Positions 3,677-56,573 of a DNA stretch of 64,000 bases are shown in pieces. The stretch covers positions 11,833-75,832 of the forward strand of contig JAQTTP010000001.1 of the NCBI GenBank assembly GCA_028710695.1. The letters are read 5' to 3'. The position numbers and the translations under genes are program-made. Below the pieces are notes generated by a model. That model saw only the letters and a program-made list of their open reading frames with translations, had not been told where the DNA came from and made no database searches. This DNA comes from Candidatus Iainarchaeum sp. Its GTDB lineage: Archaea > Iainarchaeota > Iainarchaeia > Iainarchaeales > 0-14-0-20-30-16. Position 1 is the first letter of the stretch. The number at the start of each line of letters is the position of its first letter.

Positions 3677-3685
3677 GGTGAATAG

Positions 3686-4024: not shown

Positions 4025-5614
4025 ATGGACGTTAAACCAGTAGTTTCTAAACATTTCAAAGATTACAGCCTAATAAAGCCAAAAAATAAAGGCTTTGGAG
4101 ATTTAACAATTGTAATAAAAGAGCCTGAAGAAAAAAAGATTAAAATCTTGAAAAAAGATCTTGAAAAGTTTGAGGGAATCGAAAAGGTTGAACAAAAAGG
4201 GCTATTTCTAAACATTTTTTACGAACCAATCCCATATTTTTATAATTCTAAAAAAACAAAAAAAGGCAATGTAAAAACAATGATAGAATATTCTCAACCA
4301 AACCCAAATAAAGAAATGCATGTTGGCCACTTAAGAGGCGCGATATTGGGGGAGGCACTAGCAAGAATAGTTGAACAAAGGCAAACAGTAATTAGGGCAA
4401 CATTGTACAACGATAAAGGCATACATATGTCAAAAACAATTTTGGGATATTTAGAAAATAAAAACAAAAAAGAAGATACTCCAAAGTTCATCAATGATTG
4501 TTATACGATTTATTCTAAATTAGAGGAACAAGATGAAAAATATAAAGACCTTGCTCAAGAAATTTTGGTTAAATGGGAAAACAAAGACAAAGAAACTTGG
4601 AAAATCTGGCAGAACATAAGAGATATTTCAATTAAAGGTTTCCATGATGTTTACAGATTGTTAGACATTAAATTTGATGCGGAATATTATGAAAGCGAAG
4701 TTTATGAAGCAGGAAGAAAGGCAGTTCTTGAAAAATACAACGAGGGAATTGTAGAAATTGACAGAAGTGGAAATTATATAGTAAGATTAGATTCTTTACC
4801 AGAAAAAGTTGTTTTAAGGGCAGATAATACGACAATTTATGCCACCGCAGACATTGCACTTACTGAAAAAAAGTTTACTGATTATAATTTAGACAGAAGT
4901 ATTACAGTTACAGATAATGCACAAAATTTATACTTCAAACAGCTTGCAGAAATTCTAAAAAAATTCAAATATAATTTTGGGGATAAATTCGAGCACGTAG
5001 GATATGGCACAGTAACTTTAAAAACCGGAAAAATGAGCAGCAGAAAAGGAAATATAATTACTGTTTTTGATTTTTACAATACTTTATTTGCAGAGGCATA
5101 TAAACAAACAAAAGGAAAGAGGCCAGATTTATCAGAAAAAGAAGTTAATGCTATTGCAGAAGGCGTTACTTTAGCAGCAATGAAATATTACATTCTAAAA
5201 TACGATGCAAAAGTAGATATGGTTTTTGACTTAGAAAAAAGTTTGGACTTAAAAGGTGACACAGGCCCGTACTTGTTGTACAATTATGTAAGAACAAAAA
5301 GTATTATAGAAAAATCAAAAATAAAACCGACAACAATCACAGAAGTATACACAGAAAAAGAAAAAGAAGTTCTAAGAATGCTTTCAGAATTCAATACAAA
5401 AATCGATGACTGTGTTAAGCATTTGACAACACATTTCTTAGCAAAATATTTGTATGATTTGACTTCTTTATTGAATTCTTATTATGAAGAAACAAAAATA
5501 ATTGACAACGATCTCAAAAAAATGAAGAATAGAATTTCTTTGTTGAATGAGGCAAATTCCATAATAAAAGATGGGTTAAATTTATTAGGAATAAAAGTAG
5601 TTGAAGAAATTTAA
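4025..5614 (+). CDS. argS: arginyl-tRNA synthetase
   Basis: HIGH-type motif PNKEMHVGHLRG, an MSSRKG-type KMSK loop, and a C-terminal DALR-like anticodon-binding region. Start moved to ATG-4025, downstream of GTGAT. Confidence 0.9.
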   Translation: MDVKPVVSKHFKDYSLIKPKNKGFGDLTIVIKEPEEKKIKILKKDLEKFEGIEKVEQKGLFLNIFYEPIPYFYNSKKTKKGNVKTMIEYSQPNPNKEMHVGHLRGAILGEALARIVEQRQTVIRATLYNDKGIHMSKTILGYLENKNKKEDTPKFINDCYTIYSKLEEQDEKYKDLAQEILVKWENKDKETWKIWQNIRDISIKGFHDVYRLLDIKFDAEYYESEVYEAGRKAVLEKYNEGIVEIDRSGNYIVRLDSLPEKVVLRADNTTIYATADIALTEKKFTDYNLDRSITVTDNAQNLYFKQLAEILKKFKYNFGDKFEHVGYGTVTLKTGKMSSRKGNIITVFDFYNTLFAEAYKQTKGKRPDLSEKEVNAIAEGVTLAAMKYYILKYDAKVDMVFDLEKSLDLKGDTGPYLLYNYVRTKSIIEKSKIKPTTITEVYTEKEKEVLRMLSEFNTKIDDCVKHLTTHFLAKYLYDLTSLLNSYYEETKIIDNDLKKMKNRISLLNEANSIIKDGLNLLGIKVVEEI

Positions 5615-5621
5615 TTTTATC

Positions 5622-6296
5622 TTAATCAAAAGATATTTCTAAATCTCTTGCAACTCTATCTATTTTCTTTATCATTTCATTTTCAGTATAAACTGTTATC
5701 ACATAATTTCTATGGAAAATAAGTTTCAAATTATGAGATTCAATAACAAAGTTTTTCATATTTTGACTATATGCATATTCAATTAATTTTGGCAAGACAG
5801 TATAGCTAGCTCTCAAATAAGGGCCATCTTTTGCTACCCCCAACTTTTTTACAAAGTCGTCTGTTTTCATGTCGCCAATAAATTCTGGCTTAAAAATATA
5901 ACTTTCTGCAAATCCATCTAAAGATCCCGACAAAAATGCAAATATCTTCTGCGGATCTTGTACTTTATATTTTCTTATAGTTCTGTAGGTTTCTAAAAAT
6001 AGAGCTACTTCTCTCAATTTTAGACTTACACTTGTGATTTGACTTTGTAAATCTATTAAGTCACTATAAAAATTACCGTAGTTTTCTAATAAGGCAGTTG
6101 TTTTTATGATCTGGCCAACTACTTTCTTGTCTTCGTTGCTCAAAGTTGTTTTTGACTTCAATTCATCGAAATATTTATGGACTTCTTGAAAATAAGTGAT
6201 TATGGCTTCCATTTCGCTAAAGGTCTTACGACTTTTAGTTAAATTTTTTTCTATCTTCTTTATACTATCCTTAACTATAGTCTTATCTAGAACCAT
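5622..6296 (-). CDS. hypothetical protein
   Basis: Long ORF with no motif I recognise. Start moved to the ATG preceded by GGTG (track start 6308). Confidence 0.5.
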   Translation of the reverse strand: MVLDKTIVKDSIKKIEKNLTKSRKTFSEMEAIITYFQEVHKYFDELKSKTTLSNEDKKVVGQIIKTTALLENYGNFYSDLIDLQSQITSVSLKLREVALFLETYRTIRKYKVQDPQKIFAFLSGSLDGFAESYIFKPEFIGDMKTDDFVKKLGVAKDGPYLRASYTVLPKLIEYAYSQNMKNFVIESHNLKLIFHRNYVITVYTENEMIKKIDRVARDLEISFD

Positions 6297-19934: not shown

Positions 19935-21143
19935 ATGGTAGATATCAAAGAGATGTTCAGATCGGAGATAAAGAAAAACAGCGTTTTCAAAAACAAGAAC
20001 ATTGTTTCTCCACACTACATCCCAGACATACTGCCATTTAGAGACGACCAGATAAAAGAGATTATATTGAATTTAGCTCCCGCGTTACAAGGAAAGAAGA
20101 TAAACAACTTATTTTTATATGGAAAAACAGGGACTGGAAAAACTAGCACAATAAAAGTAGTTCTTGCAAAAATGGAAGAATTGGCAAAAGAAAGGACTGA
20201 TTGCAAAAATATAGTTACAACTTATATCAATTGTAGAAATCACAATACAAAATATAGAATTATTCTAAAACACATAAACGATTTATACAAACATGACTAT
20301 GTTGGTTACTCTTCTTCTTTCGTTTATGACAAATTAACAGAATATGTAAGAAAAAACAAGATTGGTTTGATAATTGTTCTAGATGAAATTGATTTAATAA
20401 AAGATGTTGATGACACAGTTTATGCATTAACAAGAGCCAATGATGAACTAACGGAAGGATCAATAAGCATTGTCGGGGTATCAAATAATGTAATGTTTAA
20501 ACAAAAATTAGATATGAGAACAAAAAGTAGTTTATGTGAAAAAGAGTTAGTGTTCCCGCCATATAATGCAAACGAACTAACAAAAATATTACAAGACAGA
20601 GTCCAAGAAGGGTTTAATGAAAACTGCGTAGAAGATTCTGCAATTGGGTTAGCATCAGCATATGCTGCACAAGAATCTGGAGACGCAAGAACAGCCATTT
20701 TACTTTTATTGAGGGCTGGAGAAATTGCTGATGAAAACAAAGAAACAAAAATTACTGAAATTGATGTTAGAAATGCAAAAAAGAAAGTTGAAAAAGATAT
20801 TTTACTAAATATGGTCAGCACATTGCCAGAACAATTACAATATGTTTTGTTTGCAATAACCAGATTAACAAAATCAAAAAATCAAACTACTTTGGGGCCA
20901 AATAGCGAAGGCATATTACATTCCGGAGAGGTATACAACGAATATTATCGGATTGCAAAAATACAAGGAAAAAGCCCAGTATCTCTAAAATGGTTCAAAC
21001 AGTATCTTGAGGAACTAGAGCTATATGGAATGATTGCAACAACAATATCTGGAAAAGGAGTAAGAGGGACAACTACCCTTATAAAATTAGGTGCAGACGC
21101 AGGAATTCTAAATAGCATTTTGGAACCAAAAATTAGCATTTAA
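19935..21143 (+). CDS. cdc6: Orc1/Cdc6 replication initiator
   Basis: 402 aa. Walker A GKTGTGKT, Walker B IVLDEID, sensor region GDARTAILLLLRAGEIA, C-terminal winged helix. Confidence 0.95.
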   Translation: MVDIKEMFRSEIKKNSVFKNKNIVSPHYIPDILPFRDDQIKEIILNLAPALQGKKINNLFLYGKTGTGKTSTIKVVLAKMEELAKERTDCKNIVTTYINCRNHNTKYRIILKHINDLYKHDYVGYSSSFVYDKLTEYVRKNKIGLIIVLDEIDLIKDVDDTVYALTRANDELTEGSISIVGVSNNVMFKQKLDMRTKSSLCEKELVFPPYNANELTKILQDRVQEGFNENCVEDSAIGLASAYAAQESGDARTAILLLLRAGEIADENKETKITEIDVRNAKKKVEKDILLNMVSTLPEQLQYVLFAITRLTKSKNQTTLGPNSEGILHSGEVYNEYYRIAKIQGKSPVSLKWFKQYLEELELYGMIATTISGKGVRGTTTLIKLGADAGILNSILEPKISI

Positions 21144-36745: not shown

Positions 36746-37819
36746 ATGGAAAAAATTTTGCTTAACAATTTAAATGTAAAATACTTTGAAAGAAATCTTG
36801 ATAATACTTTAACAAATGCATATATTCAAAAAATACAACCTTTAGAAAAAAACGAAAATGCCTTAAAAATAAAAGTAAAATCTAAAGATGTAAATTATGA
36901 TTTAATTGTGTTTGATGGATTCTTATTTTTAACAAAATATAATTATAAAACAAGCGAAAAAACTGGTTTCTGTAAAAATCTTGAAAAACAACTGGGTAAT
37001 GAAAAGATTCTAAAAATAGAACAAAAGGATTTTGAAAAAGTAATTGTTTTTGAAACAAGGAACAATTTTCTAATATTTGAATTATTTTCACACAACAATA
37101 TTATATTAACAGATAAGGATTACAAAATCATTGCAAGCCAAGCCAGAGAAAAATGGGCAGATAGAGAAATTGGCACAAATAAAACTTATATTTTCCCATC
37201 AAATAACAAAAAAAGCCCAGCAAAAATAACTGAATTTAATTTTAATAGCATTTCAGACATAATTTCAAAACTTAATGTACCGCCGTCTCTTGTTGAGCAT
37301 TTTGCAAAAGAAGATCCTAACCCAAACAGTATTGCAAGAAAAATCAAAAAGATATACACTGGGCCAATAGCCATAGACTGCTGCGCATTTTTAAAAAGCA
37401 AGAAATTAGAATATTTTAATACAAAGATAGAGGACCTAGAAACTATAAAAACAGGGTTTAATGATATTGTAGATAAATACATTAATTCTTTAGAAAGTGC
37501 AACTTTAGAAAAAAGTGGAGTGAACAAAAAATCTTTAGAACTTGAAGCCACTATTAAAAAAATGGATCTTAAAGTAGAAGGCTTCAAAAAAAGCATTACT
37601 GAAGATTGCGAAAAAGCAAAATGGATTGAAGCAAATTATGATTTCTTAGAAGAACTTAGATTAACCGTGCTAAAAGCATTGGAAAATGGAAAAAAACCAG
37701 ATGAAATACTAAAAATATTGAAAGTTAAGGGTAAAAATTACCCCCTTCTACAGAATCTAGTAAAAATAGATATGAAGAATAAAAAAATTATATTTTCTAT
37801 TCCTCAGCTTCAGCAGTAA
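36746..37819 (+). CDS. NFACT/Rqc2-family protein, N-terminal half (NFACT-N/FbpA plus coiled coil)
   Basis: IEQKDFEKVIVFE, LIFELFSHNNIILTD and REIGTNKTYIFP match the NFACT-N pattern, followed by a coiled-coil region. No DUF814 in this ORF. Confidence 0.7.
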   Translation: MEKILLNNLNVKYFERNLDNTLTNAYIQKIQPLEKNENALKIKVKSKDVNYDLIVFDGFLFLTKYNYKTSEKTGFCKNLEKQLGNEKILKIEQKDFEKVIVFETRNNFLIFELFSHNNIILTDKDYKIIASQAREKWADREIGTNKTYIFPSNNKKSPAKITEFNFNSISDIISKLNVPPSLVEHFAKEDPNPNSIARKIKKIYTGPIAIDCCAFLKSKKLEYFNTKIEDLETIKTGFNDIVDKYINSLESATLEKSGVNKKSLELEATIKKMDLKVEGFKKSITEDCEKAKWIEANYDFLEELRLTVLKALENGKKPDEILKILKVKGKNYPLLQNLVKIDMKNKKIIFSIPQLQQ

Positions 37820-38081
37820 TTTGCTTTTCATCTACTATAAATACATCACTTACTGCACTAACTGCTGCATATGGTATTTTTATAATTCTGTCACCAGTGT
37901 TCAAATTTAGGCTTTTTACCAATTTTGACTGGCTGTCTATTTCAACTAATAGGTATTCTACGTCTCCAGTTAATTCGTTAACAAGAACATCTATTAATTT
38001 GCCTACTTCCTCTCCTCTTCCTGTTATAACTCTCTTTGAAGCCAATTGCTTAGCTATTGTGTACTTATACATTAACATCAC
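37797..38081 (-). CDS. PRC-barrel domain protein
   Basis: 94 aa. VITGRGEEVGKLIDVLVNELTGDVEYLLVE...IPYAAV is typical of archaeal PRC-barrel proteins. Confidence 0.6.
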   Translation of the reverse strand: MMLMYKYTIAKQLASKRVITGRGEEVGKLIDVLVNELTGDVEYLLVEIDSQSKLVKSLNLNTGDRIIKIPYAAVSAVSDVFIVDEKQITAEAEE

Positions 38082-38337
38082 CCTCTTGTTCCTATATTTT
38101 AATTATAACAATTAAATTAAAGTTCAGGTTATATTTAAATGTTTCTCCTTATGCCCCGAAAAAGTTATACAAGAGGGGGCCCCATAGTTCCAGCATTCAC
38201 TTTTAAAATTAAAAAAATATTTTTGAGTTTAGGGGCCTTCTAATCGAAAACTATATATATGAGTATTATTTTCTATAATATGTAAAGGAAATATTCCTTG
38301 AATGATTTAACAAATTAATTATACTGGAGGGATTAAA

Positions 38338-38652
38338 ATGTTAAGACTATCCGAATTATTCGGCAGAGACATCTATACAGACATAGGAGACTACAAGGGT
38401 AAAGTATATGATATAGTTGTAAACTTAGAAACAGGTAAGTTAGAAACTATTACTACAGAGCCTTTAAAAGTAAAAACAAAACAACAAGCAAAGAAGATAA
38501 TAACTGAGAAAAGTATACCTTACAAAAACGTTTTAGCAGTTAAAGATATTATCATAGTTGCTTCTAAGAATAGAAAAATTGATGATTCTGGCTCAGATGA
38601 TGATAAAAAAAGACCTAGCATAAAAGCAGGTGCATTAGTAAGCTATAGGTAA
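38338..38652 (+). CDS. PRC-barrel domain protein
   Basis: 104 aa. LFGRDIYTDIGDYKGKVYDIVVNLETGKLETI is a PRC-barrel-like N-terminus. GGAGGGAT SD upstream. Confidence 0.6.
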   Translation: MLRLSELFGRDIYTDIGDYKGKVYDIVVNLETGKLETITTEPLKVKTKQQAKKIITEKSIPYKNVLAVKDIIIVASKNRKIDDSGSDDDKKRPSIKAGALVSYR

Positions 38653-38675
38653 AAGGTAAAAGTTAATTTTACCTT
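38653..38675 (+). terminator. 9-bp hairpin immediately after the stop codon
   Basis: AAGGTAAAA-GTTAA-TTTTACCTT followed by a T-rich sequence. Confidence 0.5.
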
Positions 38676-38822
38676 AACTTCTAATTTTTATTTCATTTCT
38701 ATATAATATATATAATTATCTAAAAATTAAAGATTGAAATATAAACTTTATTATATCTATAATCTACATAACTTACAAAAATAGATTAATAATGATAATA
38801 GTAGAACTATGGGGTGTATCTA

Positions 38823-39410
38823 ATGGTAGACGCTTTTTTAGTAAGGTACAAGATAAAAGTATTAGATGAAGTTAAACATTCATCCTATCTCTACCAAAAG
38901 CTATTTAGAGCTATATATGGTTATACCCAAGTTGTTTGTAAACAAACTGGAAAGAAATATGTTTACCATAGACCTGGTGTTTTAAGCAAATTTTCCTATA
39001 TAAAAGAAGGTAAAAACGAGATTATAGTAACTAAAGACGGATTCTCTTATTTAATTAATTTCTTTAAAACAGGCAAAAACCCAGCACATAATTGGCAATC
39101 AAAAGGAAATTGGACTGCAAGCTATAGTGTAGTAGACGTATCTATGGACGAAGCAAAAATAACTAAAGCAGTAGAAAATCAGATAAGAAGCACTTATGTT
39201 ATTGATAATCAAGGTAATTACCGATTGCTTGTGGATCTTTTAGAAGAACTTTCTTTAGGAAAGCACATAGATAAGGTATTTTTGAAGCAATATGAAAACA
39301 TAATTAACTTCATAAAAAGCGGAAGCTGGTATGATGCAGCCTTAAAAAGAAGTGGATTAGTTAAAAAATTCGATAAATTAGTTGGCTTTTATGTAAAATA
39401 TAAAGGCTAA
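38823..39410 (+). CDS. hypothetical protein
   Basis: About 195-aa ORF after GGGGTG SD. No motif recognised. Confidence 0.5.
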   Translation: MVDAFLVRYKIKVLDEVKHSSYLYQKLFRAIYGYTQVVCKQTGKKYVYHRPGVLSKFSYIKEGKNEIIVTKDGFSYLINFFKTGKNPAHNWQSKGNWTASYSVVDVSMDEAKITKAVENQIRSTYVIDNQGNYRLLVDLLEELSLGKHIDKVFLKQYENIINFIKSGSWYDAALKRSGLVKKFDKLVGFYVKYKG

Positions 39411-39424
39411 AAGTAAAAAACTAA

Positions 39425-39922
39425 TTATTTGGTTAATTTTAAGCCTGTTTTTACTTTAGTTGTTAGCATTGCTTTCTCTTTCTTGATATTTATAAGGATC
39501 TCTCTTTTCTTCCATTGTCTTTTTCCGCCTACAGCATTAGTTTCTAATAAACCAATGTCAACAAGGGTCTTTATGTAAGGGTAAAGGCTCTTTTCGTTCT
39601 TATATTCTATGAAAAACATCTGTTTTACTCTATCTTTTATTGTTTGCATGTCTACCCATTCTTCGAAGCCAACAACACTTATTATGTGATAAGCCTGGGT
39701 ATTTTTCATCGGATCTATGTAATTCCATAAATCATCTACCATAACTTCTTCAGGTTCTTCGGAATCGTTATGTATACTTTTCTTAGGTTCACTTTGCTTT
39801 TCCCCTTTGATTTCGAATATTTCTGGATTTTCAGGTTCTTTTTTTGTTTTTACTTCGTGTTCCTTAGTTTTTTCTTCAGTCTTCTTCGAGAATAAGCTTT
39901 TTATTTTATCAAATAAACCCAT
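39425..39922 (-). CDS. hypothetical protein with acidic N-terminal region and probable C-terminal winged-helix domain
   Basis: C-terminal LYPYIKTLVDIGLLETNAVGGKRQWKK looks like a recognition helix plus wing. GTGAT SD precedes ATG-39922. The gene abuts the GTAATTAC array. Confidence 0.5.
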   Translation of the reverse strand: MGLFDKIKSLFSKKTEEKTKEHEVKTKKEPENPEIFEIKGEKQSEPKKSIHNDSEEPEEVMVDDLWNYIDPMKNTQAYHIISVVGFEEWVDMQTIKDRVKQMFFIEYKNEKSLYPYIKTLVDIGLLETNAVGGKRQWKKREILINIKKEKAMLTTKVKTGLKLTK

Positions 39923-39945
39923 TTCTATCACAACACCGTTCATTG

Positions 39946-40045
39946 GTAATTACCGTTATTACAATAATTACGTACGAGTATTTATAATAATTACTGTAAT
40001 TACCAGTAATTACCCTCCGTAACTACCGCAATTACCGTAATTACC
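39946..40045. repeat. left array of the 9-bp-spaced palindromic octamer GTAATTAC(C)
   Basis: Units start at 39946, 39955 (GTTATTAC), 39964 (ATAATTAC), 39987 (ATAATTAC), 39996, 40006, 40019 (GTAACTAC), 40028 (GCAATTAC) and 40037. Confidence 0.9.
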
Positions 40046-40109
40046 AAACAAGGTGAAAAACATAGAGGAAAAACACAAAAGCTGGCAAAAAACGCATTAA
40101 ATATGTTAA

Positions 40110-40131
40110 GTAATAACAGTAATTACTGTTA
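40110..40131. repeat. central pair of units within an 18-bp perfect palindrome
   Basis: GTAATAAC (40110) and GTAATTAC (40119). TAACAGTAATTACTGTTA (40114-40131) is a perfect palindrome. Confidence 0.9.
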
Positions 40132-40274
40132 ACTTTTTTAATTAGCACAGGCACATTTATGAATAATTTACCTACAAATAGCGGAATGTTTAAACAATCT
40201 GAACCTTTCAGTATTGTCCAATAATTTGTGTTTTTTGTGCTTCTTAAAGGCGAAAACTAGTGTGCGATCTGGCG

Positions 40275-40319
40275 TGTAACTACAGTAATTACCGTAATGA
40301 CCGTAATTACTATAATTAC
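40275..40319. repeat. right array of five 9-bp units
   Basis: GTAACTACA, GTAATTACC, GTAATGACC, GTAATTACT and ATAATTACT at exact 9-bp spacing. Ends 33 nt from the tRNAi-Met 3' end. Confidence 0.9.
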
Positions 40320-40351
40320 TTCAAGCCCCAGTTAAATTGACTAAAATAAGA

Positions 40352-40426
40352 TAGCGGGAGTTGGATTTGAACCAACGGCCTCCGGGTTATGAGCCCGGCG
40401 GGCACTCCAGGCTGCCCTACCCCGCT
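40352..40426 (-). tRNA. initiator tRNA-Met (CAT)
   Basis: 75 nt. A1-U72 acceptor AGCGGGG/TCCCGCT, anticodon arm CCGGG-CTCATAA-CCCGG with three consecutive G-C pairs, T arm GTTGG-TTCAAAT-CCAAC. These are archaeal initiator hallmarks. Confidence 0.88.
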
Positions 40427-40450
40427 ATATTATGTAATGATAGTATGGTA

Positions 40451-40996
40451 TTACTTTTTATTGTTTTCCTTTAAAAATGAGGACAAAATTGCATTTTCTT
40501 CTTCGATAACATTGATCTGGGCTTGAAGTTCCTTGTGCTTTTCTACATAATCAATATGTTTCAGAGTTTCACTACACATAGGGCAATTGAAATTATACTC
40601 TGCAGCAACTTCAAAAGGAAAGTCATGGCAGCTGTTTTTACAAACAAACATTTGGTATTCACCATAATATTTTTCTTTTGCTTTTAATTTTTCTAGTTTA
40701 TCCATGTTATCTAAAAATACAAGCTTTGATAATTTATTGTAGTCCATGTACCACTTAAATGTAAACCACCCAGAATTTTCATTTTTTATTTTGTCATAGT
40801 TTACTATTCCATAATAATGTAATTTGTTTAGTATGGATCTTACAACAGTTATTTTGCAATCAAGATGTTGTATAAAGAATTCATCAGATGTGTTTTCTTT
40901 GTTATTACACCAAATAGAAATAAGCTTAGAAGCAGAGCCGTCTATATTTTCTAAATATTTTTGAACGCTATTTAGATTAATAATATCTGCAGCCAT
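40451..40996 (-). CDS. tfe: transcription factor E (TFE-alpha)
   Basis: 181 aa. N-terminal winged helix (VVRSILNKLHYYGIVNYDKIKNENSGWFTFKW) plus a Zn ribbon (CKNSC...CPMC). Confidence 0.8.
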   Translation of the reverse strand: MAADIINLNSVQKYLENIDGSASKLISIWCNNKENTSDEFFIQHLDCKITVVRSILNKLHYYGIVNYDKIKNENSGWFTFKWYMDYNKLSKLVFLDNMDKLEKLKAKEKYYGEYQMFVCKNSCHDFPFEVAAEYNFNCPMCSETLKHIDYVEKHKELQAQINVIEEENAILSSFLKENNKK

Positions 40997-41047
40997 AATA
41001 CTGATGGGTATGATTTTTCTTAAAAAGCAATATGCGCTTATACATAA

Positions 41048-42811
41048 CTAGTAAATATAGTAATTACCCTCTGTCTTTTGTTCTTTGTCTTTCGTAGAGT
41101 TCAATTTATTTACTCTTGGTCTGCCAGATTTTAAATCTTTTCTATAAGTTACATCAAGTATTTTTAAGAATTGGTTCATCCCGCTTTTTTTGTCTTTAGG
41201 TTTTGTACAAAATCCAGTAACCCCTGGCTTTCCATCAAATACAATTATCTTGTCTGAAATAAAATCTACAAAAAGAATATCGTGGTCTACTACAAAAGCA
41301 ACCTTTTTTCTTTTTGCAATTATGGATTGTATTGTTTTTGCAATGTTAATTCTTTCTTCAACATCTAAAAATGCAGATGGTTCATCAAGCAAATAAATTT
41401 CTGCATCAGTTGCAAGAGTTTTTGCAATCATTACCTTTTGTAAAGTCCCTGTGTTTAATTCGTCAAGATACAAATCTTCAATTTCATTTAATTTAAGTTT
41501 AAACCAAAGCTCAGACATCAATACTTCTTGATTTGTGCCCTTTAAAAACTCCCTTACTTTTACATGTTCACCATCAAAATCTTGCGGCTTGTATGACATT
41601 CGCTTATTAAAAACATTTATGTCATTATCCTCTTTTTCAACACCGGCAAGTAATTTTACAAACGTAGTTTTTCCAATGCCATTCTCTCCAACAATTCCAA
41701 TAATTTCGCCCTCATTTAAAGATCCCTCATCAACATCTAATTTGAAATCTTTAAAAGTTTTACACATCTGCGGATAGTTAAAAAATAAGTTAGTTTTTCT
41801 TGCTTGTTCATCCCTGTAGTAAAAATTTATTTCGTAGTCTCGAAATCTTAAGTTTTCATCTTGTATAAAGCCACCCAAGAACTCGTTTATTGCAGTGTTT
41901 GTTGCCTTGGTGCTAGAAACAACACCATAAGCATGCGCTTTACCAAATAGAATATGTAAATAGTCGCATAAGTAGTCAACTAATGCCAGGTCGTGCTCTA
42001 CAATTAGATTTGTATCTTTGTAATCTTCTATTAATTTTGCAAATACAAACCTTTGTTTTATATCTAAAAAGGAAGACGGTTCATCGTAGAAATACAGATT
42101 TGCCTTTTTTATAATCGTTGCAGCAATAGCAACTTTTTGAAGTTCACCACCAGAAAGTGTAGAAACTTCTTTGTTTACTATGTTACCCATTTTTAGCAGA
42201 TCTATTATTTTGTCAAGTTCTTTACGTTCATCAATTTTTTTAAGCAGGTCAATTACTTTGCCTTTAAAATTGTCTTTTATTGCTTTTATGTTTTGCGGCT
42301 TGTATGCGACTTTTGTTTTTCCATCCTTCAAATTTATAAATGTACTTTGAAGTTCTTTTCCTTTGAAATAAGTTATTATCTCGTCGTAATTACCTTGTTT
42401 TTCATAGTCTCCCAAGTTAGGAACTATTGCTCCAGAATAAATATTTAAAATTGTTGACTTTCCAATTCCGTTTTTTCCAATTAAACCAACCGCATTGCCA
42501 TCTCTTACAGTCGGCAGCCTGAACAGCCTAAAACGGTTTTTTCCATATTGGTGTATCGGCTCACTTAAGTCTAAAGATAGATTAATTATTGTTATTGCTC
42601 CAAAAGGACACTTCTTTGGGCAAATTCCACAGCCAGTACAAAGCTCTTCAGAAATTTGCACCTTTTTTTCAGATTCATTATAGACTATTGCTTCCTTGCC
42701 CATTTTGATAACTGGGCAGATATTATAACAGGCAAATCCACACTCTTCTTTCTTACATCTTTTATAGTCAATTATGGCAATTCTTTTCTTTTGCATATTT
42801 ATTTCAACCAA
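41048..42811 (-). CDS. abce1: ABCE1/RLI ribosome-recycling ATPase
   Basis: N-terminal double 4Fe-4S ferredoxin (CGFACYNICP, CTGCGICPKKCP) and two ABC cassettes (GKNGIGKST, GENGIGKTT). Start could instead be ATG-42796. Confidence 0.95.
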   Translation of the reverse strand: MVEINMQKKRIAIIDYKRCKKEECGFACYNICPVIKMGKEAIVYNESEKKVQISEELCTGCGICPKKCPFGAITIINLSLDLSEPIHQYGKNRFRLFRLPTVRDGNAVGLIGKNGIGKSTILNIYSGAIVPNLGDYEKQGNYDEIITYFKGKELQSTFINLKDGKTKVAYKPQNIKAIKDNFKGKVIDLLKKIDERKELDKIIDLLKMGNIVNKEVSTLSGGELQKVAIAATIIKKANLYFYDEPSSFLDIKQRFVFAKLIEDYKDTNLIVEHDLALVDYLCDYLHILFGKAHAYGVVSSTKATNTAINEFLGGFIQDENLRFRDYEINFYYRDEQARKTNLFFNYPQMCKTFKDFKLDVDEGSLNEGEIIGIVGENGIGKTTFVKLLAGVEKEDNDINVFNKRMSYKPQDFDGEHVKVREFLKGTNQEVLMSELWFKLKLNEIEDLYLDELNTGTLQKVMIAKTLATDAEIYLLDEPSAFLDVEERINIAKTIQSIIAKRKKVAFVVDHDILFVDFISDKIIVFDGKPGVTGFCTKPKDKKSGMNQFLKILDVTYRKDLKSGRPRVNKLNSTKDKEQKTEGNYYIY

Positions 42812-42848
42812 GGATATTGTTAAAAATGAATCTCATACTGTTTATGTT

Positions 42849-43880
42849 ATGAAGTATTTTGTACATAAAAAAGAGCAGAACGTGGTAATTACTCCTGAAA
42901 ACCTAGATGATCTTTGGGCTTTAAATAATATAACCCACGAAAACGAGCTAATCTATGGTAAAACTACAAGGCGTTTTAGAGTTGAAGGTTCTAAAGACAG
43001 TGAAAAGAAAACAGTAAATGTAAAAATAAAAATAGAAAAAAAAGAGTTTGACACCCAAGATGGCAGGCTAAAATTTACAGGGATTATTATTGATGGTCAC
43101 CCAGAAGAGTATGTTGACGTTGGCTCGTTCCACACTTTGGATATTGGGTTTGGCGACACAGTAACTATCTACAAAGAATTGCTTGGTTATGAACTGGATT
43201 TAATAGAATCTGCAAAGAAATATACCTTAAACCCAAAAATCATTGCAGTAGTTTTGGACGATGAAACAGCAACAGTTTCCGAAATAAATTATAGCAATTA
43301 TAAAGTTGTGGCAAAAGTAAATTCAAAAAACAAAGGAAAAAGGTATGCAGTAGAAGAAGATAAAAATTATTTTAAAGAAATTTTGGAAAGCATCTCAAAT
43401 ACAAAACCAGAAATGTTGATATTGGCTGGCCCAGGCTTCGACAAAGACAAATTGGGTCTTTACTTAAAAGAAAAGAATCTGAAGTTAAAAACAATTTTTG
43501 TTAACTTGAACGGCGTAGGAACAAATGGCATACTGGAGCTAATAAAAAGTAACTCTTTGTCAAAAACACTTAATGAATTTAAGATATCAAAAGATATAGA
43601 GAAAGTAAACAACTCATTATACAAAATAAGTCAAGGCAAACGAAATATTATCTATGGTCCTAAAGATGTGCAAAGTGTTTTAGAAAATCAGATGGTTGCA
43701 GTAGAAGAATTAACAGTATCCACAAATTATTTTAATGAAAATTATTCAACTCTTAAACCCCACTTTGTAACTATTTCAAATCAAGGCAAAAAAATACATT
43801 TAATTGATTCAAAGAACGATGCAGGAAAAATGCTTGATGGGCTTGGCGGGATCCTGTTAAACTTATTTTATTCTTTGTGA
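42849..43880 (+). CDS. pelA: Pelota (aDom34) mRNA surveillance factor
   Basis: MKYFVHKKEQNVVITPENLDDLWALNNI...GKTTRRF is a typical Pelota N-terminus, with an eRF1-like domain architecture. The track start 42774 would overlap the divergent abce1. Confidence 0.88.
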   Translation: MKYFVHKKEQNVVITPENLDDLWALNNITHENELIYGKTTRRFRVEGSKDSEKKTVNVKIKIEKKEFDTQDGRLKFTGIIIDGHPEEYVDVGSFHTLDIGFGDTVTIYKELLGYELDLIESAKKYTLNPKIIAVVLDDETATVSEINYSNYKVVAKVNSKNKGKRYAVEEDKNYFKEILESISNTKPEMLILAGPGFDKDKLGLYLKEKNLKLKTIFVNLNGVGTNGILELIKSNSLSKTLNEFKISKDIEKVNNSLYKISQGKRNIIYGPKDVQSVLENQMVAVEELTVSTNYFNENYSTLKPHFVTISNQGKKIHLIDSKNDAGKMLDGLGGILLNLFYSL

Positions 43881-43887
43881 CATAAAA

Positions 43888-44193
43888 TTAAATGTCATAA
43901 TTTTTCTTTGTTTTGTAATATTCTTTTAAAAATTCGTTAATGAACTGCCCAGAATAGTATATCTCTTTTGGCCCAATATCTTCTACAGCGAGGAGCTTTA
44001 TACTCACTAACATATTTAGAAGCAGTTTTAAGTCCTCTTGTTCGACCATATGGAATTCATCCATTTTTTTAATTTCGTCTATAGTTGCACCAGATTTTGA
44101 TAACTTTTCTAGCAAGCTTATACATAACTCAGAGCTAGCAATAGCATATTGTTTAGGATATTTTTGGGCGTATTCTATGAAACTTTCGTTCAT
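43888..44193 (-). CDS. hypothetical small protein (possibly winged-helix)
   Basis: 102 aa from ATG-44193. The longer track ORF (to 44367) overlaps rpoK on the other strand. Confidence 0.4.
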   Translation of the reverse strand: MNESFIEYAQKYPKQYAIASSELCISLLEKLSKSGATIDEIKKMDEFHMVEQEDLKLLLNMLVSIKLLAVEDIGPKEIYYSGQFINEFLKEYYKTKKNYDI

Positions 44194-44275
44194 TTTGACC
44201 ACTTTCCTTAGAAATATATATAAAAGTAATGGGTATAAAGGATAATATAATAACTTATATAAAATAGGTGATTTC

Positions 44276-44467
44276 TTGACATGTTCAAAATTTGAAAAAA
44301 CGAGACTATTGGCTACAAGGTCATTACAGATAGCGGATAATGCTCCGCCACAAGTAAGCGCGGACAAGAAAGAGACCCCTTACGAAGTAGCATCAAAAGA
44401 GTTCGAAGAAAAGAAAATACCTTTAAGAATAATTAAGTATAAAGCAGATGGGACAAGGGAGAAATAA
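44276..44467 (+). CDS. rpoK: RNA polymerase subunit Rpo6 (RpoK)
   Basis: 63 aa. SKFEKTRLLATRSLQIADNAPP matches the RpoK/RPB6 core (TRFEKARIIGARALQI..GAP). Confidence 0.85.
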   Translation: MTCSKFEKTRLLATRSLQIADNAPPQVSADKKETPYEVASKEFEEKKIPLRIIKYKADGTREK

Positions 44468-44491
44468 TATTAAAATTGAAAGGTGTGGTAT

Positions 44492-44683
44492 ATGGGTAAA
44501 TCAATGTTAAAACCATTAAAGACAAAAGCAAACACAATAATGGAAGCAGTAAAAGAAATAGGTACAGATTTTGATACTAATAAAAAAACAATAAACAAAC
44601 TAGGTCTGCCAATAACAAAAACAAACGTAAACAAAATGGCTGGCTATATGACAAGGCAAAAGAAAAGAAAACAAAAAGAATGA
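44492..44683 (+). CDS. rps17e: 30S ribosomal protein S17e
   Basis: 63 aa. TDFDTNKK and NKMAGYMTR match archaeal S17e (TDFE.NKK...N.IAGY.T). AAGGTG SD upstream. Confidence 0.75.
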   Translation: MGKSMLKPLKTKANTIMEAVKEIGTDFDTNKKTINKLGLPITKTNVNKMAGYMTRQKKRKQKE

Positions 44684-44687
44684 GCAA

Positions 44688-45281
44688 TCATTCTATTTTT
44701 AATAATTCCTTGCAAAATTCTTTAAGTTGCTTATAGTTTCTTTCCAATTTTTTATTTGCTTTTTCCAAGATTATTTTTATTTGTTCATCAGAAAGCAACA
44801 CTTTTTTCCCAATTTTAATTGGAACCGCCAAGGTTTGTGACCCAATAAGCTCGACCAGATATTTGTCATCTTTTACGTAAAATATTCCGCCCCTTCTAAT
44901 TCCTGATCTTGTCTTTATTTCCAAAAATTTCTTTGCGGTTTCTAAGTCTTTCGCCCCAAAGTGAAAAATGAATGGTTCCTGCTTAAGCCACAGTTCTGGA
45001 AACTTGTTAGTTTTCAAAGCGCCCTTAATCTCAGAAAGCTTTACTTTTCGGTGTTCTTTAAGCACAAAAAGGTTAGGCTGCTTGCTTTCTTCAGTGTCTA
45101 GGCCAATAACCATAATTCGCCCAGCACAGCAGCTAGAAGAATAGATATTTGGCTTTTTGTTTATCTTTTTCAAAAAAGGAATGAGCATTTTGTCGACAAG
45201 TCCTTTGTCTAAAGCAGCCCCAAATTTGGCTACATTGCTCTTTTTACACATTTCGAATCGGTAATCCGCCATGTTTATCAT
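44688..45281 (-). CDS. taw3: tRNA wyosine-derivative methyltransferase Taw3/TYW3
   Basis: 197 aa. SSSCCAGRI matches the TYW3 S-S-C-S-G-R signature. Alternative start at ATG-45272. Confidence 0.72.
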   Translation of the reverse strand: MINMADYRFEMCKKSNVAKFGAALDKGLVDKMLIPFLKKINKKPNIYSSSCCAGRIMVIGLDTEESKQPNLFVLKEHRKVKLSEIKGALKTNKFPELWLKQEPFIFHFGAKDLETAKKFLEIKTRSGIRRGGIFYVKDDKYLVELIGSQTLAVPIKIGKKVLLSDEQIKIILEKANKKLERNYKQLKEFCKELLKIE

Positions 45282-53977: not shown

Positions 53978-54114
53978 CGTAATCATCTCTTTAGCTAAAG
54001 ATATGTAAAATATGGCGTATAAATATATAAAAGTATATCTAAAGACCCAAATAAGCCCAACTTATTTCACATAAGTTTAAATAAGTTTTGTGACTTTAAT
54101 TATTAGTGATTGTT

Positions 54115-54381
54115 ATGTCTGAAAGTTATGTAAATGTTAATTTGCACATAGATGATTATACAAATAGGGTTTTGGGTGTTATTAAGGAAAAAAACGGATT
54201 AAAAGATAAATCCCAGGCCCTGATGTATTTTGCCAAACAATATGGCAGTGACCTGGTGGACCAAGAGGTAAAAGATGAAGTGATTAGAGAAGTAATACAA
54301 ATAGAAGAGAACCACCTAAAGAAATATGGTCTTAGGGCAAAATCTATAAAACAATTAAGAGAAGAAATAGAGCGTGACTAG
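54115..54381 (+). CDS. putative antitoxin of a RelE/ParE-type module
   Basis: 88-aa ORF ending 15 nt upstream of the toxin-like gene. No motif recognised; the call is positional. Confidence 0.5.
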   Translation: MSESYVNVNLHIDDYTNRVLGVIKEKNGLKDKSQALMYFAKQYGSDLVDQEVKDEVIREVIQIEENHLKKYGLRAKSIKQLREEIERD

Positions 54382-54395
54382 ATTAAAGTGATTTA

Positions 54396-54671
54396 ATGTT
54401 TGATCTTGATTATTCTGATGAATTAAAAGCCACACTTAATAAATTATCTAAAAAAGACCGGAAAAGATATTTTGAAGTAATTAAAAAAATGGATGAAATA
54501 ATTAATTCGGATCCCGAAACAATAAACCACTACAAAAATTTGAGATACAGTTATTCTGACAGAAAAAGAGTGCACATTGGCGAGAAATTCGTTTTAACTT
54601 TCAGAGTATTTATAAAAGAAAATTTTATTCTTTTTGTAAAATTTGCACATAGAGACGATATTTACAAATAA
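54396..54671 (+). CDS. RelE/ParE-superfamily toxin-like protein
   Basis: 91 aa. LNKLSKKDRKRYFEVIKKMDEI..DP...YKNLRY....KRVHIGEKFVLTFRV..ENFILFVKFAHRDDIYK fits the RelE/StbE pattern (..kd....i.kki..i...P......L......R.riG.yRl.y.i.....i.i..i.hR..iY). Confidence 0.68.
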   Translation: MFDLDYSDELKATLNKLSKKDRKRYFEVIKKMDEIINSDPETINHYKNLRYSYSDRKRVHIGEKFVLTFRVFIKENFILFVKFAHRDDIYK

Positions 54672-54824
54672 TTGTTTTCTGCCAAGAAAGTAATTTCTTT
54701 TAGTGGAAATTATTTCGGGGGCCAACAAAGCTTTTTTGTAGAAAACAAAAAAGTTTGAGGGTCAGAAGCAACCTTGTTTTACGCAAAGTTGACTTCTTAC
54801 TGAAGAAATTTTATGAAATAAAAT

Positions 54825-56573
54825 TTACTTCCTGCTTACTTCTTTCTCAATTCTGTCTTTGCTTAGTTCTATAAAAATAGGCCTTCCATGTGGGCAAGTA
54901 AAGGGATTTTCACAATCAAACAAGTTTTCAATGATCTTTTCCATTTGAATCTCATTAAGTGGTGTTCCGGCTTTTACAGACATTTTACATGCAATAGTAG
55001 CAAATAACCCTGCTTGTTTGTCGGTAATATCTGCTTTAATCCCCCTAATAACATCTTTTAGTAATTCCTTGGTTTCTTCTTTAGTAATACTGTTCCTTAT
55101 TTTCAAAGGAATAGTCCTAACTAGCAGTTCGTCCTTAAGTTCATCAATTTCAAATCCAAGTTTTCCAAGCTCATCTTTATTTTCAAGCAAAACCCCTCTG
55201 TCCTCAACAGGTAAAAGGAACCCAAATGGAACCAATAATTCTTGTTTTAATAAGCCATTGTGTTCATGATATTGGGTTTGTATTTGCTCGAAATTATATC
55301 TTTCTTCAGCAACGTGCTGGTCAATAATATAAAAAGAATTATTTTTTTCAACAAGGATGTAAGTATTAAAAATTTGTCCAATAATTTTAAAGTTTTTTAT
55401 TTTCGGAGTAGCATGGTGTTGCATTTCTTCTGGCAAAATATCCAAACTTTTTTGTATACTTTTTTCTGCTTTTATAAAGAAGTCATCCATATCCCCTTTT
55501 TCTGCCTTTGTTTCAGATTCCGCAATAAGTCTTGCAGTTATTGTTGAAATAAGTTGTGTTGGTCTTGTTTTATCAATTTCTGCTTCTTTAATTTGTTCTA
55601 ATGCATTTTTAACAGCATAAAAAGTTGGCAAAAATAATAAACTATCTTCTTTAACCCTTACTTCTAATTTTTGCGGGTGTACATTTACATCAACAATTTT
55701 TGGATTAATTTCTAAAAATATGAATGCATCAGGCCTATAAGTTTTTGGAATCTTTGCTTCAAATGCTTTTTTTATTGCTGACAAAACAGTAAAGTTTTTT
55801 ATTGGCCTATTATTTATGTAAATTTGAGTAACGCCTTTACTTTCGCTTACTTTATTTGGCTTAGTAACAAAAACAATTGCAGAAACCAAGGGATCTTTAT
55901 ATGTTCCTTGGGCTAGGTTTTTTGCAATGTCAAAATGAATTTCATTAACTCTTTCTTCATAGCCTGTTTTTTTCTGAAAGTTATAAGTTTCTTTTCCATC
56001 CACAATAATTTTGAAATTAACCTTTGGATTAGAAATTGCAATGCATTTTATCCAATCAATTATTTTTTTTAATTCATAATTTGTGGTCTTCAAAAATTTC
56101 TGTCTTGCAGGGATATTATAAAATAAATTTTGAACTGTAATCGATGTTCCCTTTCTAAAAGCCGTCATTGTTTTTCTGTTAATCAGCCCATTTTCTATTT
56201 CAATTACATTAGAATGGTCATAACCTTCAATTGCACTTGTAATTTCCATTTTGGAAACATCCGCAATAGTAGATAATGCTTCGCCTCTAAATCCATATGA
56301 CAAAATAGAATAAATATCCTCAATTTTTGTAATTTTTGATGTCGCATGTCTTAAAATAGTTAATTCTAGATCTTCTTCCTCAATGCCGGTTCCGTTGTCT
56401 ATGACAGTTATTTCCTTTTTCCCGCCATCTTTTAGCTTGATAATGATTTCATCAGAATTAGCATCTATGCTGTTCTCTACAAGTTCCTTTACTGCGGAAG
56501 CAGGCCTTTCTATTACCTCTCCAGCCGCAATTTTGTTTATTGTGCTGCTATCAAGAACGTGGATTTTACTCAT
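54825..56573 (-). CDS. mutL: DNA mismatch repair protein MutL (endonuclease-type)
   Basis: GHKL N-terminus IAAGEVIERPASAVKELVENSIDA, DNGTGI, YGFRGEAL. C-terminal DQHVAEERYNFE fits DQHA(X)2E(X)4E, and CPHGRP is present. Confidence 0.95.
   Translation of the reverse strand: MSKIHVLDSSTINKIAAGEVIERPASAVKELVENSIDANSDEIIIKLKDGGKKEITVIDNGTGIEEEDLELTILRHATSKITKIEDIYSILSYGFRGEALSTIADVSKMEITSAIEGYDHSNVIEIENGLINRKTMTAFRKGTSITVQNLFYNIPARQKFLKTTNYELKKIIDWIKCIAISNPKVNFKIIVDGKETYNFQKKTGYEERVNEIHFDIAKNLAQGTYKDPLVSAIVFVTKPNKVSESKGVTQIYINNRPIKNFTVLSAIKKAFEAKIPKTYRPDAFIFLEINPKIVDVNVHPQKLEVRVKEDSLLFLPTFYAVKNALEQIKEAEIDKTRPTQLISTITARLIAESETKAEKGDMDDFFIKAEKSIQKSLDILPEEMQHHATPKIKNFKIIGQIFNTYILVEKNNSFYIIDQHVAEERYNFEQIQTQYHEHNGLLKQELLVPFGFLLPVEDRGVLLENKDELGKLGFEIDELKDELLVRTIPLKIRNSITKEETKELLKDVIRGIKADITDKQAGLFATIACKMSVKAGTPLNEIQMEKIIENLFDCENPFTCPHGRPIFIELSKDRIEKEVSRK

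Follow-up and report, generated by a model that had tools for sequence, protein, structure and literature searches.

An array of short palindromic repeats fills a spacer in the genome of an archaeon, and it raises the question of what so many copies of one octamer, GTAATTAC, could be for. The DNA analyzed, referred to here as the window, is a stretch of 64 kb from an Iainarchaeota (Diapherotrites, DPANN) genome with a G+C content of about 31–32%. The spacer (39923-40349) lies between the gene of a winged-helix protein on one side and a tRNA-Met(CAT) gene on the other, both located on the minus strand. Iainarchaeota are uncultivated, and we know of no pair of a regulator and its site that has been characterized in them. 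The locus is best explained as a new, phylum-restricted winged-helix regulator with its operator array: the region is probably a multi-site autoregulatory operator of the gene 39425..39922, with auxiliary central and distal clusters.

Octamer arrays around the promoter

Exact copies of GTAATTAC occur 11 times in the window against 1.45 expected, and 11 or more were obtained in none of 100 shuffles, so that the clustering is not compositional, as the first-pass annotation of this DNA had held. Its count of at least 16 copies or near-copies was also confirmed: the stretch 39923-40351 contains seven exact octamers and nine with one mismatch, i.e., 16 of the 73 octamers that the window has when one mismatch is allowed. 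Those of the spacer span 39946-40319. The unit coordinates of the layout first described, with nine units on the left, two in the center and five on the right, are correct. The left units start at 39946, 39955, 39964, 39987, 39996, 40006, 40019, 40028, and 40037, with spacings of 9, 9, (14+9), 9, 10, 13, 9, and 9 bp, and a pseudo-unit with two mismatches starts at 39978, over the TATA box. This left array is better split into three triplets around the promoter. Both arrays were scored as period 9 by Tandem Repeats Finder. The elements of the region are the following:

39425..39922, minus strand: winged-helix gene, 165 amino acids, Iainarchaeota-specific
39927..39931, minus strand: Shine-Dalgarno-like GTGAT, 4 nt ahead of the ATG
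39946..39971: proximal triplet 1, with one unit every 9 bp (three in all), between TATA box and start codon
39981..39988, minus strand: TATA box, TTTATAAT (TTATAAAT in gene sense), conserved in five genomes
39987..40013: proximal triplet 2, units at 39987, 39996, and 40006, overlapping the TATA box and the transcription factor B recognition element (BRE) and extending upstream
40019..40044: proximal triplet 3, units at 40019, 40028, and 40037
40110..40131: central pair, units at 40110 (one mismatch) and 40119 (exact)
40215..40236, minus strand: conserved motif AAAAACACAAATTATTGGACA, 92% column identity in five genomes
40276..40319: distal (right) array, units at 40276, 40285, 40294, 40303, and 40312, at exact 9-nt spacing
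40350..40427, minus strand: tRNAi-Met (CAT), in the same direction as the winged-helix gene and upstream of it

Triplet 1 covers the expected transcription start at about 39958. In triplet 2, the first two units are offset by 41 bp from their counterparts in triplet 1 and the third by 42 bp, while triplet 3 is offset by 31-32 bp from triplet 2. These offsets correspond to four and three helical turns. The central pair is located 82 bp from the proximal array and includes a perfect 18-bp palindrome at 40114-40131, which had been noticed before and is real. The distal array ends 30 bp from the 3′ end of the tRNA gene. This gene, correctly named earlier as an initiator, is assigned to that type because our reading of its sequence gives an A1:U72 pair and three G:C pairs in the anticodon stem.

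The left array had been described as overlapping the likely promoter, and the TATA-like TTTATAAT is indeed conserved in five related genomes (the window, L001, L114/L115, L118, and L002), which form the alignment of the array lineage and whose winged-helix proteins are 63-87% identical to that of the window. The unit 39987-39994 adjoins the TATA box and covers the position of the BRE, and the block TTATAAATACT around the TATA box is invariant in the five genomes. All five close relatives also have GTGAT shortly before the ATG, in alignment columns that differ for some rows; it is a putative Shine-Dalgarno-like element.

Two further features assigned to the spacer did not hold. The region between the arrays had been called an AT-rich core, but 40046-40275 has 68.7% A+T against 68.4% in the window. 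About half (51%) of all 230-bp windows are at least as A+T-rich, its duplex stability is ordinary, and its least stable 100 bp reach only the 92nd percentile in the window. The least stable 100-bp duplex of the window lies outside the repeats, at about 38700-38800, in the gap between a PRC-barrel gene and a gene of about 195 codons. The inverted 11-mer said to bracket the core exists, but is at chance level, as an equal or longer one was found in 38 of 300 dinucleotide shuffles (13%). In an Rfam scan of the spacer only the tRNA scored above the threshold, and the microRNA-like hairpin hits below it were rejected as an artefact of the palindromic repeats. When the octamer was searched for in the literature, only primers and unrelated motifs came up.

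Conservation of the sites across Iainarchaeota

For comparison, 80 related loci were collected, of which 77 could be evaluated for an octamer upstream of the gene and 60 contributed spacers to the motif counts; expected numbers for the 80 loci as a whole follow a first-order Markov model. The order TFE, tRNAi-Met, spacer, winged-helix gene, convergent gene of unknown function and PRC-barrel gene is nearly constant (77 of 80 loci), the tRNA being syntenic in most of them and the PRC-barrel gene in 74-77. The spacer is 229-588 bp long. An exact GTAATTAC is located directly upstream (within about 120 bp) of the winged-helix homologue in 75 of the 77 evaluable species loci, and it is usually the sole copy in the whole 6-12-kb locus. 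The 60 spacers together contain 124 exact octamers, present in 59 of them, against 1.3 expected. Beyond about 3 kb from the gene the octamer falls to background, with five copies against 3.3 expected in 366 kb. The comparison of the synteny around tfe, tRNAi-Met and the PRC-barrel gene, which had been proposed as a check, thus revealed an order and an octamer conserved throughout the phylum.

In the common promoter design, the TATA box stands between two octamers, the second of them 15-20 bp ahead of the ATG, e.g., GTAATTAT-TTTAA-GTAATTAC. Most species have one to three sites only, all at the core promoter, and those without arrays still hold single boxes at the matching promoter positions. 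The distances between sites are quantised (10, 19-22, 29-32, 41, 51, and 61-63 bp), with 41 bp being the commonest octamer spacing in other species. The sites therefore lie on one face of the helix, as would be expected for cooperative binding.

In the window's lineage the box has been multiplied into arrays. The shared plan, from the tRNA to the gene, consists of a distal array of four to five units, a 21-bp motif, a central octamer and the proximal triplets around TTATAAATACT. In the alignment of the five genomes, invariant columns make up 72% of those within octamers but 17% of those in the rest of the spacer. Triplet 1, GTAATTAT-n-GTAATAAC-n-GTAATTAC, is identical in all five and only its one-base linkers vary. 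The imperfect units GTAATTAT and GTAATAAC are preserved in their imperfect form, and copy number and irregular spacings are stable. Four units of the distal array are conserved in all five close relatives and the exact central octamer (40119-40126) is conserved in the relatives, whereas the second central unit (40110) and with it the 18-bp palindrome are found in the window genome only.

Rearranged loci separate the two flanking genes. In L116 and L117, which belong to a sister clade, a Dus gene is located directly upstream of the winged-helix gene and the array lies upstream of Dus, presumably at the promoter of a Dus-winged-helix operon. L117 has a Ham1p-like gene on that flank in place of TFE, and its spacer shows no evident tRNA. 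It is thus the promoter driving the winged-helix gene, and not the tRNA, with which the array moves. Taken together, these patterns show octamer sites that are, as judged from the alignments, under purifying selection and tied to the promoter of this gene phylum-wide. Dus inserts between the tRNA and the winged-helix gene were seen at L006:4022-5963, L116:1984-3000, and L117:924-1883. In L006, a glycosyltransferase-like gene, according to our reading of its translation, is inserted as well, and its open reading frame (ORF) contains five exact octamers in 1 kb of coding sequence.

Outside the promoter, the first-pass annotation had listed isolated copies at 39214, 41060, and 42885. All three are present, but a fourth exact copy, at 42386, had been overlooked:

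39214..39221: exact octamer, 3′ part of the convergent gene of unknown function (38823..39410)
41060..41067: exact octamer, last codons of ABCE1, about 40 bp upstream of a TATA-like box of TFE
42386..42393: exact octamer, inside ABCE1
42885..42892: exact octamer, 5′ end of the Pelota ORF, with the ABCE1 start about 75-90 bp downstream

These four copies all lie within 3 kb, and the spacer is over 1 kb away from three of them (post hoc p about 8e-5). The octamer at 41060 is kept in the five genomes, though the codons are identical at just 25% of the invariant residues. The one inside ABCE1 occupies offset 403 in three of the genomes; in the other two, an exact copy lies at a distance of 14 bp, at offset 417. 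Exact copies also occur in or beside the Pelota ORF of L001, L114, and L118. Inside the homologue of the convergent gene, L001 has an exact octamer, and L114 and L118 have exact copies at 3680 and 3737 in the called homologue. Over all loci, when the promoter of the gene is set aside, 41 exact octamers are found up to about 3 kb from the gene, coding regions included, against 4.4 expected (ninefold). Most of these extra sites come from about ten loci in three clades; L063 has three of them in a 3′-3′ intergenic gap, which is no promoter.

The listed Pelota ORF begins at 42774 and runs over the start of ABCE1, and its first 25 residues look spurious. The start is probably the ATG at 42849 (MKYFVHKK...), with which the octamer at 42885 would correspond to Pelota codons 13-15. 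In one clade, GTAATTAC is also found upstream of tRNA-Lys(CTT), as pairs 19 bp apart at L063:3777-3803 and L072:3317-3343 and as a single copy at L075:3389, and in L078 an octamer pair is located 85 bp upstream of a gene encoding 228 amino acids. This suggests a few extra targets in the tRNA-Lys(CTT) clade. A general tRNA promoter element was rejected, as only 10 of 168 tRNA genes carry the octamer.

The winged-helix protein and the function of the array

The protein translated from 39425..39943 matches the NCBI entry PHH82_00255 (Candidatus Iainarchaeum sp.) with 100% identity, and a gene start at the ATG at 39922 (MGLFDKIK...) is supported by the homologue alignment, which begins there. The protein consists of an amphipathic N-terminal helix (MGLFDKIKSLF), a disordered linker of acidic and basic residues, a winged helix and a C-terminal helix. 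In the AlphaFold2 model, the N-terminal helix comprises residues 10-18, the disordered linker 22-50 and the winged helix 67-154, the last with a predicted local distance difference test (pLDDT) above 90, followed by the C-terminal helix. As all structural matches of the model are winged-helix proteins, the fold which had been guessed from the C-terminus stands. Foldseek retrieved generic winged-helix proteins only (E about 1e-3), among them Fur DNA-binding domains as the top matches, STIV F93, RosR, TubR (3m8e), pNOB8 AspA, and PadR and ArsR types; the TubR match is generic, with a template-modelling (TM) score of 0.49. The invariant stretch S119-T126 lies on or just before helix 121-129 and the invariant G139-K146 in hairpin 133-146; we take them to be the putative recognition helix and wing. 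The N-terminal helix is kept family-wide as a cationic amphipathic helix despite a drifting sequence, with a median hydrophobic moment of 0.60 and a net charge of mostly +2 to +4.

The gene had been regarded as an orphan, but 55 homologues were found in a collection of 5.8 billion proteins, and relatives are encoded in 149 species-level genomes. The source names shown for the homologues are all Diapherotrites, Iainarchaeum or "archaeon". An exhaustive profile search of 1.84 billion representatives yielded 39 clusters and no remote family, a profile search of the PDB yielded no sequence relative, and in Pfam, NCBIfam and PHROGs nothing above noise was found for this protein or its 198-residue neighbor. 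By these searches, the family appears to be restricted to Iainarchaeota (DPANN archaea).

Archaeal repressors bound over the BRE and TATA box block TBP and TFB, and those bound between the TATA box and the start block the recruitment of RNA polymerase, as known for MDR1, LrpA, Phr, and TrmB. Because the octamers occupy these positions, they are read as an operator. The protein has the winged-helix fold of the autoregulated archaeal repressors, and the motif over BRE, TATA box and start is conserved in the orthologous promoters. The winged-helix product would bind the octamers cooperatively, with one dimer per palindromic box. The units over BRE and TATA box (39987-40013) would block TBP and TFB and the three units at 39946-39971 the recruitment of RNA polymerase, and the gene would therefore repress itself. 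Auxiliary operators would be provided by the clusters in the center (40119) and at the distal end (40276-40319) and by the isolated boxes up to about 3 kb away; they would concentrate the protein locally and may contact the promoter by looping. We infer that the adjacent protein is the binder, that repression is the effect and that looping occurs. A dimer reading a single groove of each octamer would explain the packing of the units at 9-10 bp.

Several points weigh against an autoregulatory operator. Guilt by association is the basis on which the binder is assigned. Winged-helix dimers usually contact two major grooves, for which an 8-bp palindrome is too short; TubR, which reads a single groove, is a precedent for such a short site. 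Unit spacing of nine bp is out of helical phase, and a simple autoregulator has no obvious need for at least 16 sites. Neither would sites in neighboring coding regions and the 3′-3′ cluster of L063 be expected of it, and the conserved N-terminal amphipathic helix is left unexplained.

The known archaeal repressors Ss-LrpB, MDR1, Phr, the TrmB family and RosR are similar in that their sites lie over BRE/TATA box and start, with regular boxes in their own promoters, and RosR and STIV F93 are both among the fold matches. However, no sequence relation to the repressors named is detectable, the protein described here has an extra amphipathic helix and a long disordered linker, and its sites are far more numerous, including auxiliary ones hundreds of bp away. 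Operators composed of many contiguous, very short units with polymer-like cooperative binding are known from Omega (heptads of pSM19035) and Fur (hexamers), the latter also providing the top fold matches with its DNA-binding domain. In both, unit sequence and length differ from those found here; Omega is a ribbon-helix-helix protein, and the metal-sensing dimerization domain of Fur is missing from the winged-helix protein.

Likeness also extends to partition systems. As in TubR/tubC, the type III partition system of pBtoxis, a small winged-helix protein is encoded downstream of short tandem repeats, which are arranged in two blocks upstream of its own operon and would double as binding array and autoregulatory operator, and the 8-bp palindrome would suit a dimer that reads a single groove as TubR does. 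In contrast, no TubZ gene is found nearby, the repeats measure 9 bp and not 12 bp as in tubC, the locus is chromosomal, conserved in the phylum and placed among housekeeping genes, and there is no sequence similarity. In ParR/parC of plasmid R1, short direct-repeat arrays likewise flank the core promoter of the binder's operon, so that centromere and operator are one. However, ParR is a ribbon-helix-helix protein with 11-bp iterons and needs the actin-like ParM, which was not found among the genes scanned here. Noc with its NBS sites and MatP with matS are site-specific binders with clustered chromosomal sites, as is predicted here, and Noc has an N-terminal amphipathic membrane helix, as the winged-helix family appears to have. 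Their folds are ParB-like and ribbon-helix-helix, respectively, and their sites span large chromosome domains and not the surroundings of one gene.

Three candidate functions had been put forward for the array. The autoregulatory operator gained support from the phylum-wide link of the octamer to the gene's promoter, where it brackets the TATA box, while the replication origin and the plasmid centromere did not. Short tandem repeats upstream of the gene of a small DNA-binding protein do form an architecture like that of parC or tubC. The stated absence of an adjacent partition ATPase gene was confirmed by a Pfam scan of 36746-45281, which returned genes for translation and transcription, PRC-barrel genes and unknowns; ABCE1 and, at a distance of 31 kb, a KaiC-like protein are the sole ATPases seen in the genes that were scanned. 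A plasmid partition family was rejected, since no motor gene was found nearby and the genes form a conserved chromosomal housekeeping cluster in 77 of 80 species. An iteron-type plasmid origin was rejected as well: its iterons measure 17-22 bp against units of 8-9 bp here, and no Rep-like domain was found in the flanking genes. More could be said for a chromosome landmark, i.e., a centromere-like site or a tether of DNA to the membrane, the divisome or a partner protein via the N-terminal helix, with autoregulation as a by-product, as in ParR/parC, TubR/tubC, Noc or MatP. The helix is cationic and amphipathic in all family members, TubR and pNOB8 AspA are among the fold matches, and the sites form a gradient, being dense in the spacer, enriched within about 3 kb (41 vs. 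4.4) and at background beyond. The 41060 site is kept in five genomes despite saturated synonymous positions, the site inside ABCE1 recurs at 403 or 417, and L063 has three sites in a 3′-3′ gap which is no promoter. The synteny of the winged-helix and PRC-barrel genes also fits, as PRC-barrel proteins act in archaeal cell division (bioRxiv 10.1101/2023.03.28.534520). However, PRC-barrel genes often lie beside translation genes and may have other housekeeping roles (bioRxiv 10.1101/2023.03.28.534520), which weakens this link. Binding of the membrane by the helix is deduced from its sequence, one to three sites at the core promoter, as in most species, are the pattern of a plain operator, and no motor domain of the ParA, ParM or TubZ type was found in the scanned neighbors or the pre-annotated genes of the related loci, the distant genes of the window being unscanned. 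The landmark is an unlikely explanation, and it is a little less likely still that the winged-helix protein is more than a regulator, namely a membrane- or divisome-associated, site-specific DNA anchor. Its N-terminal helix and the sites around the gene, arrays as well as in-gene copies up to about 3 kb away, would then form, with the unknown and the PRC-barrel protein, a positioning system of the centromere, Noc or MatP kind specific to a DPANN phylum. A non-canonical chromosomal origin, with the arrays as initiator or accessory sites around an unwinding core, is very improbable. It would account for a long conserved non-coding spacer (229-588 bp) in compact genomes and for helically phased repeats in the spacers of most species, and no origin is evident beside orc1/cdc6 in the window. 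But the core is neither A+T-rich nor easily melted, the array tracks the gene's promoter on rearrangement, and Orc1/Cdc6, whose gene usually though not obligatorily neighbors an archaeal origin, is encoded 19 kb away (19935-21143) and absent from all 80 related loci. The octamer had been judged to be unlike the canonical origin recognition box (ORB) or mini-ORB, whose core motif is TTCC....GAA (PMC1904270); the eight matches of TTCCNNNNGAA in the window include none in the spacer and form no cluster of three or more within 600 bp. GC skew, proposed as a check for an origin, follows the gene strand and has no minimum here, and like the ORB-like scan it revealed no sign of an origin in any part of the window.

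That the octamers are bound by another factor, with the winged-helix gene merely as its most conserved target, is also quite unlikely. The sequence does not directly identify the binder, and octamers occur upstream of tRNA-Lys(CTT) and other genes in one clade and upstream of TFE and ABCE1 in that of the window, so that the motif would control more than one gene. Yet the winged-helix gene is the only constant partner of the motif, in about 75 species and even after upstream rearrangement, and the motif and the putative recognition helix are both invariant phylum-wide. Furthermore, autoregulation is the rule among small winged-helix regulators. A small local regulon of ABCE1, TFE and the winged-helix gene itself is a further reading. 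Finally, the array could be a functionless product of slippage, a nonamer microsatellite, but this is barely credible. The nonamer is not unique to the family, since tandem GTAATTACN arises independently elsewhere: it was found in 58 unrelated, mostly GC-richer metagenome contigs and one virus contig without the winged-helix gene. The conclusion is built on conservation within Iainarchaeota and not on the uniqueness of the repeat. Neither in the window nor in the 80 related loci does the octamer spread beyond the neighborhood of the winged-helix gene. The number of units, the imperfect units and the spacings (9, 10, 13, and 14) are conserved at 63-87% identity of the winged-helix protein, and species which lack the array keep single boxes at the promoter.

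In the metagenome scan for three exact tandem units, two of the 60 loci are the winged-helix locus and the rest mostly GC-richer nonamer repeats. The unrelated (GTAATTACN)n contigs (L119-L178 except L126 and L170) range from 28 to 64% G+C and contain, in places, at least eight units, which may or may not encode GNY or VIT repeats. A scan of viral contigs for two tandem units gave 33 matches, nearly all of them bare pairs. In the IMG/VR virus contig L091, tandem nonamers are located upstream of a small gene (5600-5680). No winged-helix homologue was found in the four viral loci with the most units, L091 with about five units included.

As to replication, the Orc1/Cdc6 gene has only about 50 bp of intergenic DNA upstream. 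No ORB-like cluster was found beside it or elsewhere in the 64 kb, and a replication origin is therefore not evident in the window. The long gap at 53986-54825 was rejected as an alternative origin, as it contains small ORFs and no repeat family.

The autoregulatory operator provides an exact prediction, namely one family without a Pfam or NCBIfam assignment, one 8-bp site and one promoter design in about 75 species, including a lineage with the site amplified to at least 16 copies. If true, it would be the first anchor for reading gene regulation in Iainarchaeota genomes. Taken with the amphipathic helix and the PRC-barrel synteny, the association with TFE, initiator tRNA and ABCE1 suggests a coupling to growth control or a role in chromosome positioning, of which the latter, if true, would be of much wider interest.

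Further motifs and the convergent gene

Two other motifs were detected between TFE and the winged-helix gene. The strand-specific (A)n-CACTCAC-(T)n is about 34-fold enriched and occurs two to six times per spacer in 36-40 of 60 species, e.g., at L027:5567-5956 and in most of the L003-L080 spacers from tRNAi-Met to the winged-helix gene. Its copies are spaced by 42, 52, 62, 73, 83, and 93 bp, i.e., multiples of 10.4 bp (Rayleigh R = 0.79), and are in phase with the first octamer. The clade of the window has lost this motif and has the distal octamer array instead.

The second one, the 21-bp motif AAAAACACAAAWTNTTGGACA, is located between TFE and tRNAi-Met in at least 36 species, mostly right after the TFE stop codon. 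Copies are found, e.g., at L005:5320 and L007:5260, and in the window at 40215-40236 on the minus strand. It is also found after other ORF ends and directly follows a stop codon in 43 of 64 copies, whereas in the window's clade it sits downstream of the tRNA. It could be a 3′-end or termination element or a protein site.

The neighboring gene converges on the winged-helix gene:

38823..39410, plus strand: convergent gene, about 195-198 amino acids, 84 homologues, the named ones all from Iainarchaeota or unclassified archaea

Its AlphaFold2 model has a pLDDT of 93.7 and a predicted TM score of 0.88, and a comparison with the PDB gave no significant fold match (best E 0.12). In 77 of 80 loci the gene is found in synteny with the winged-helix and PRC-barrel genes.

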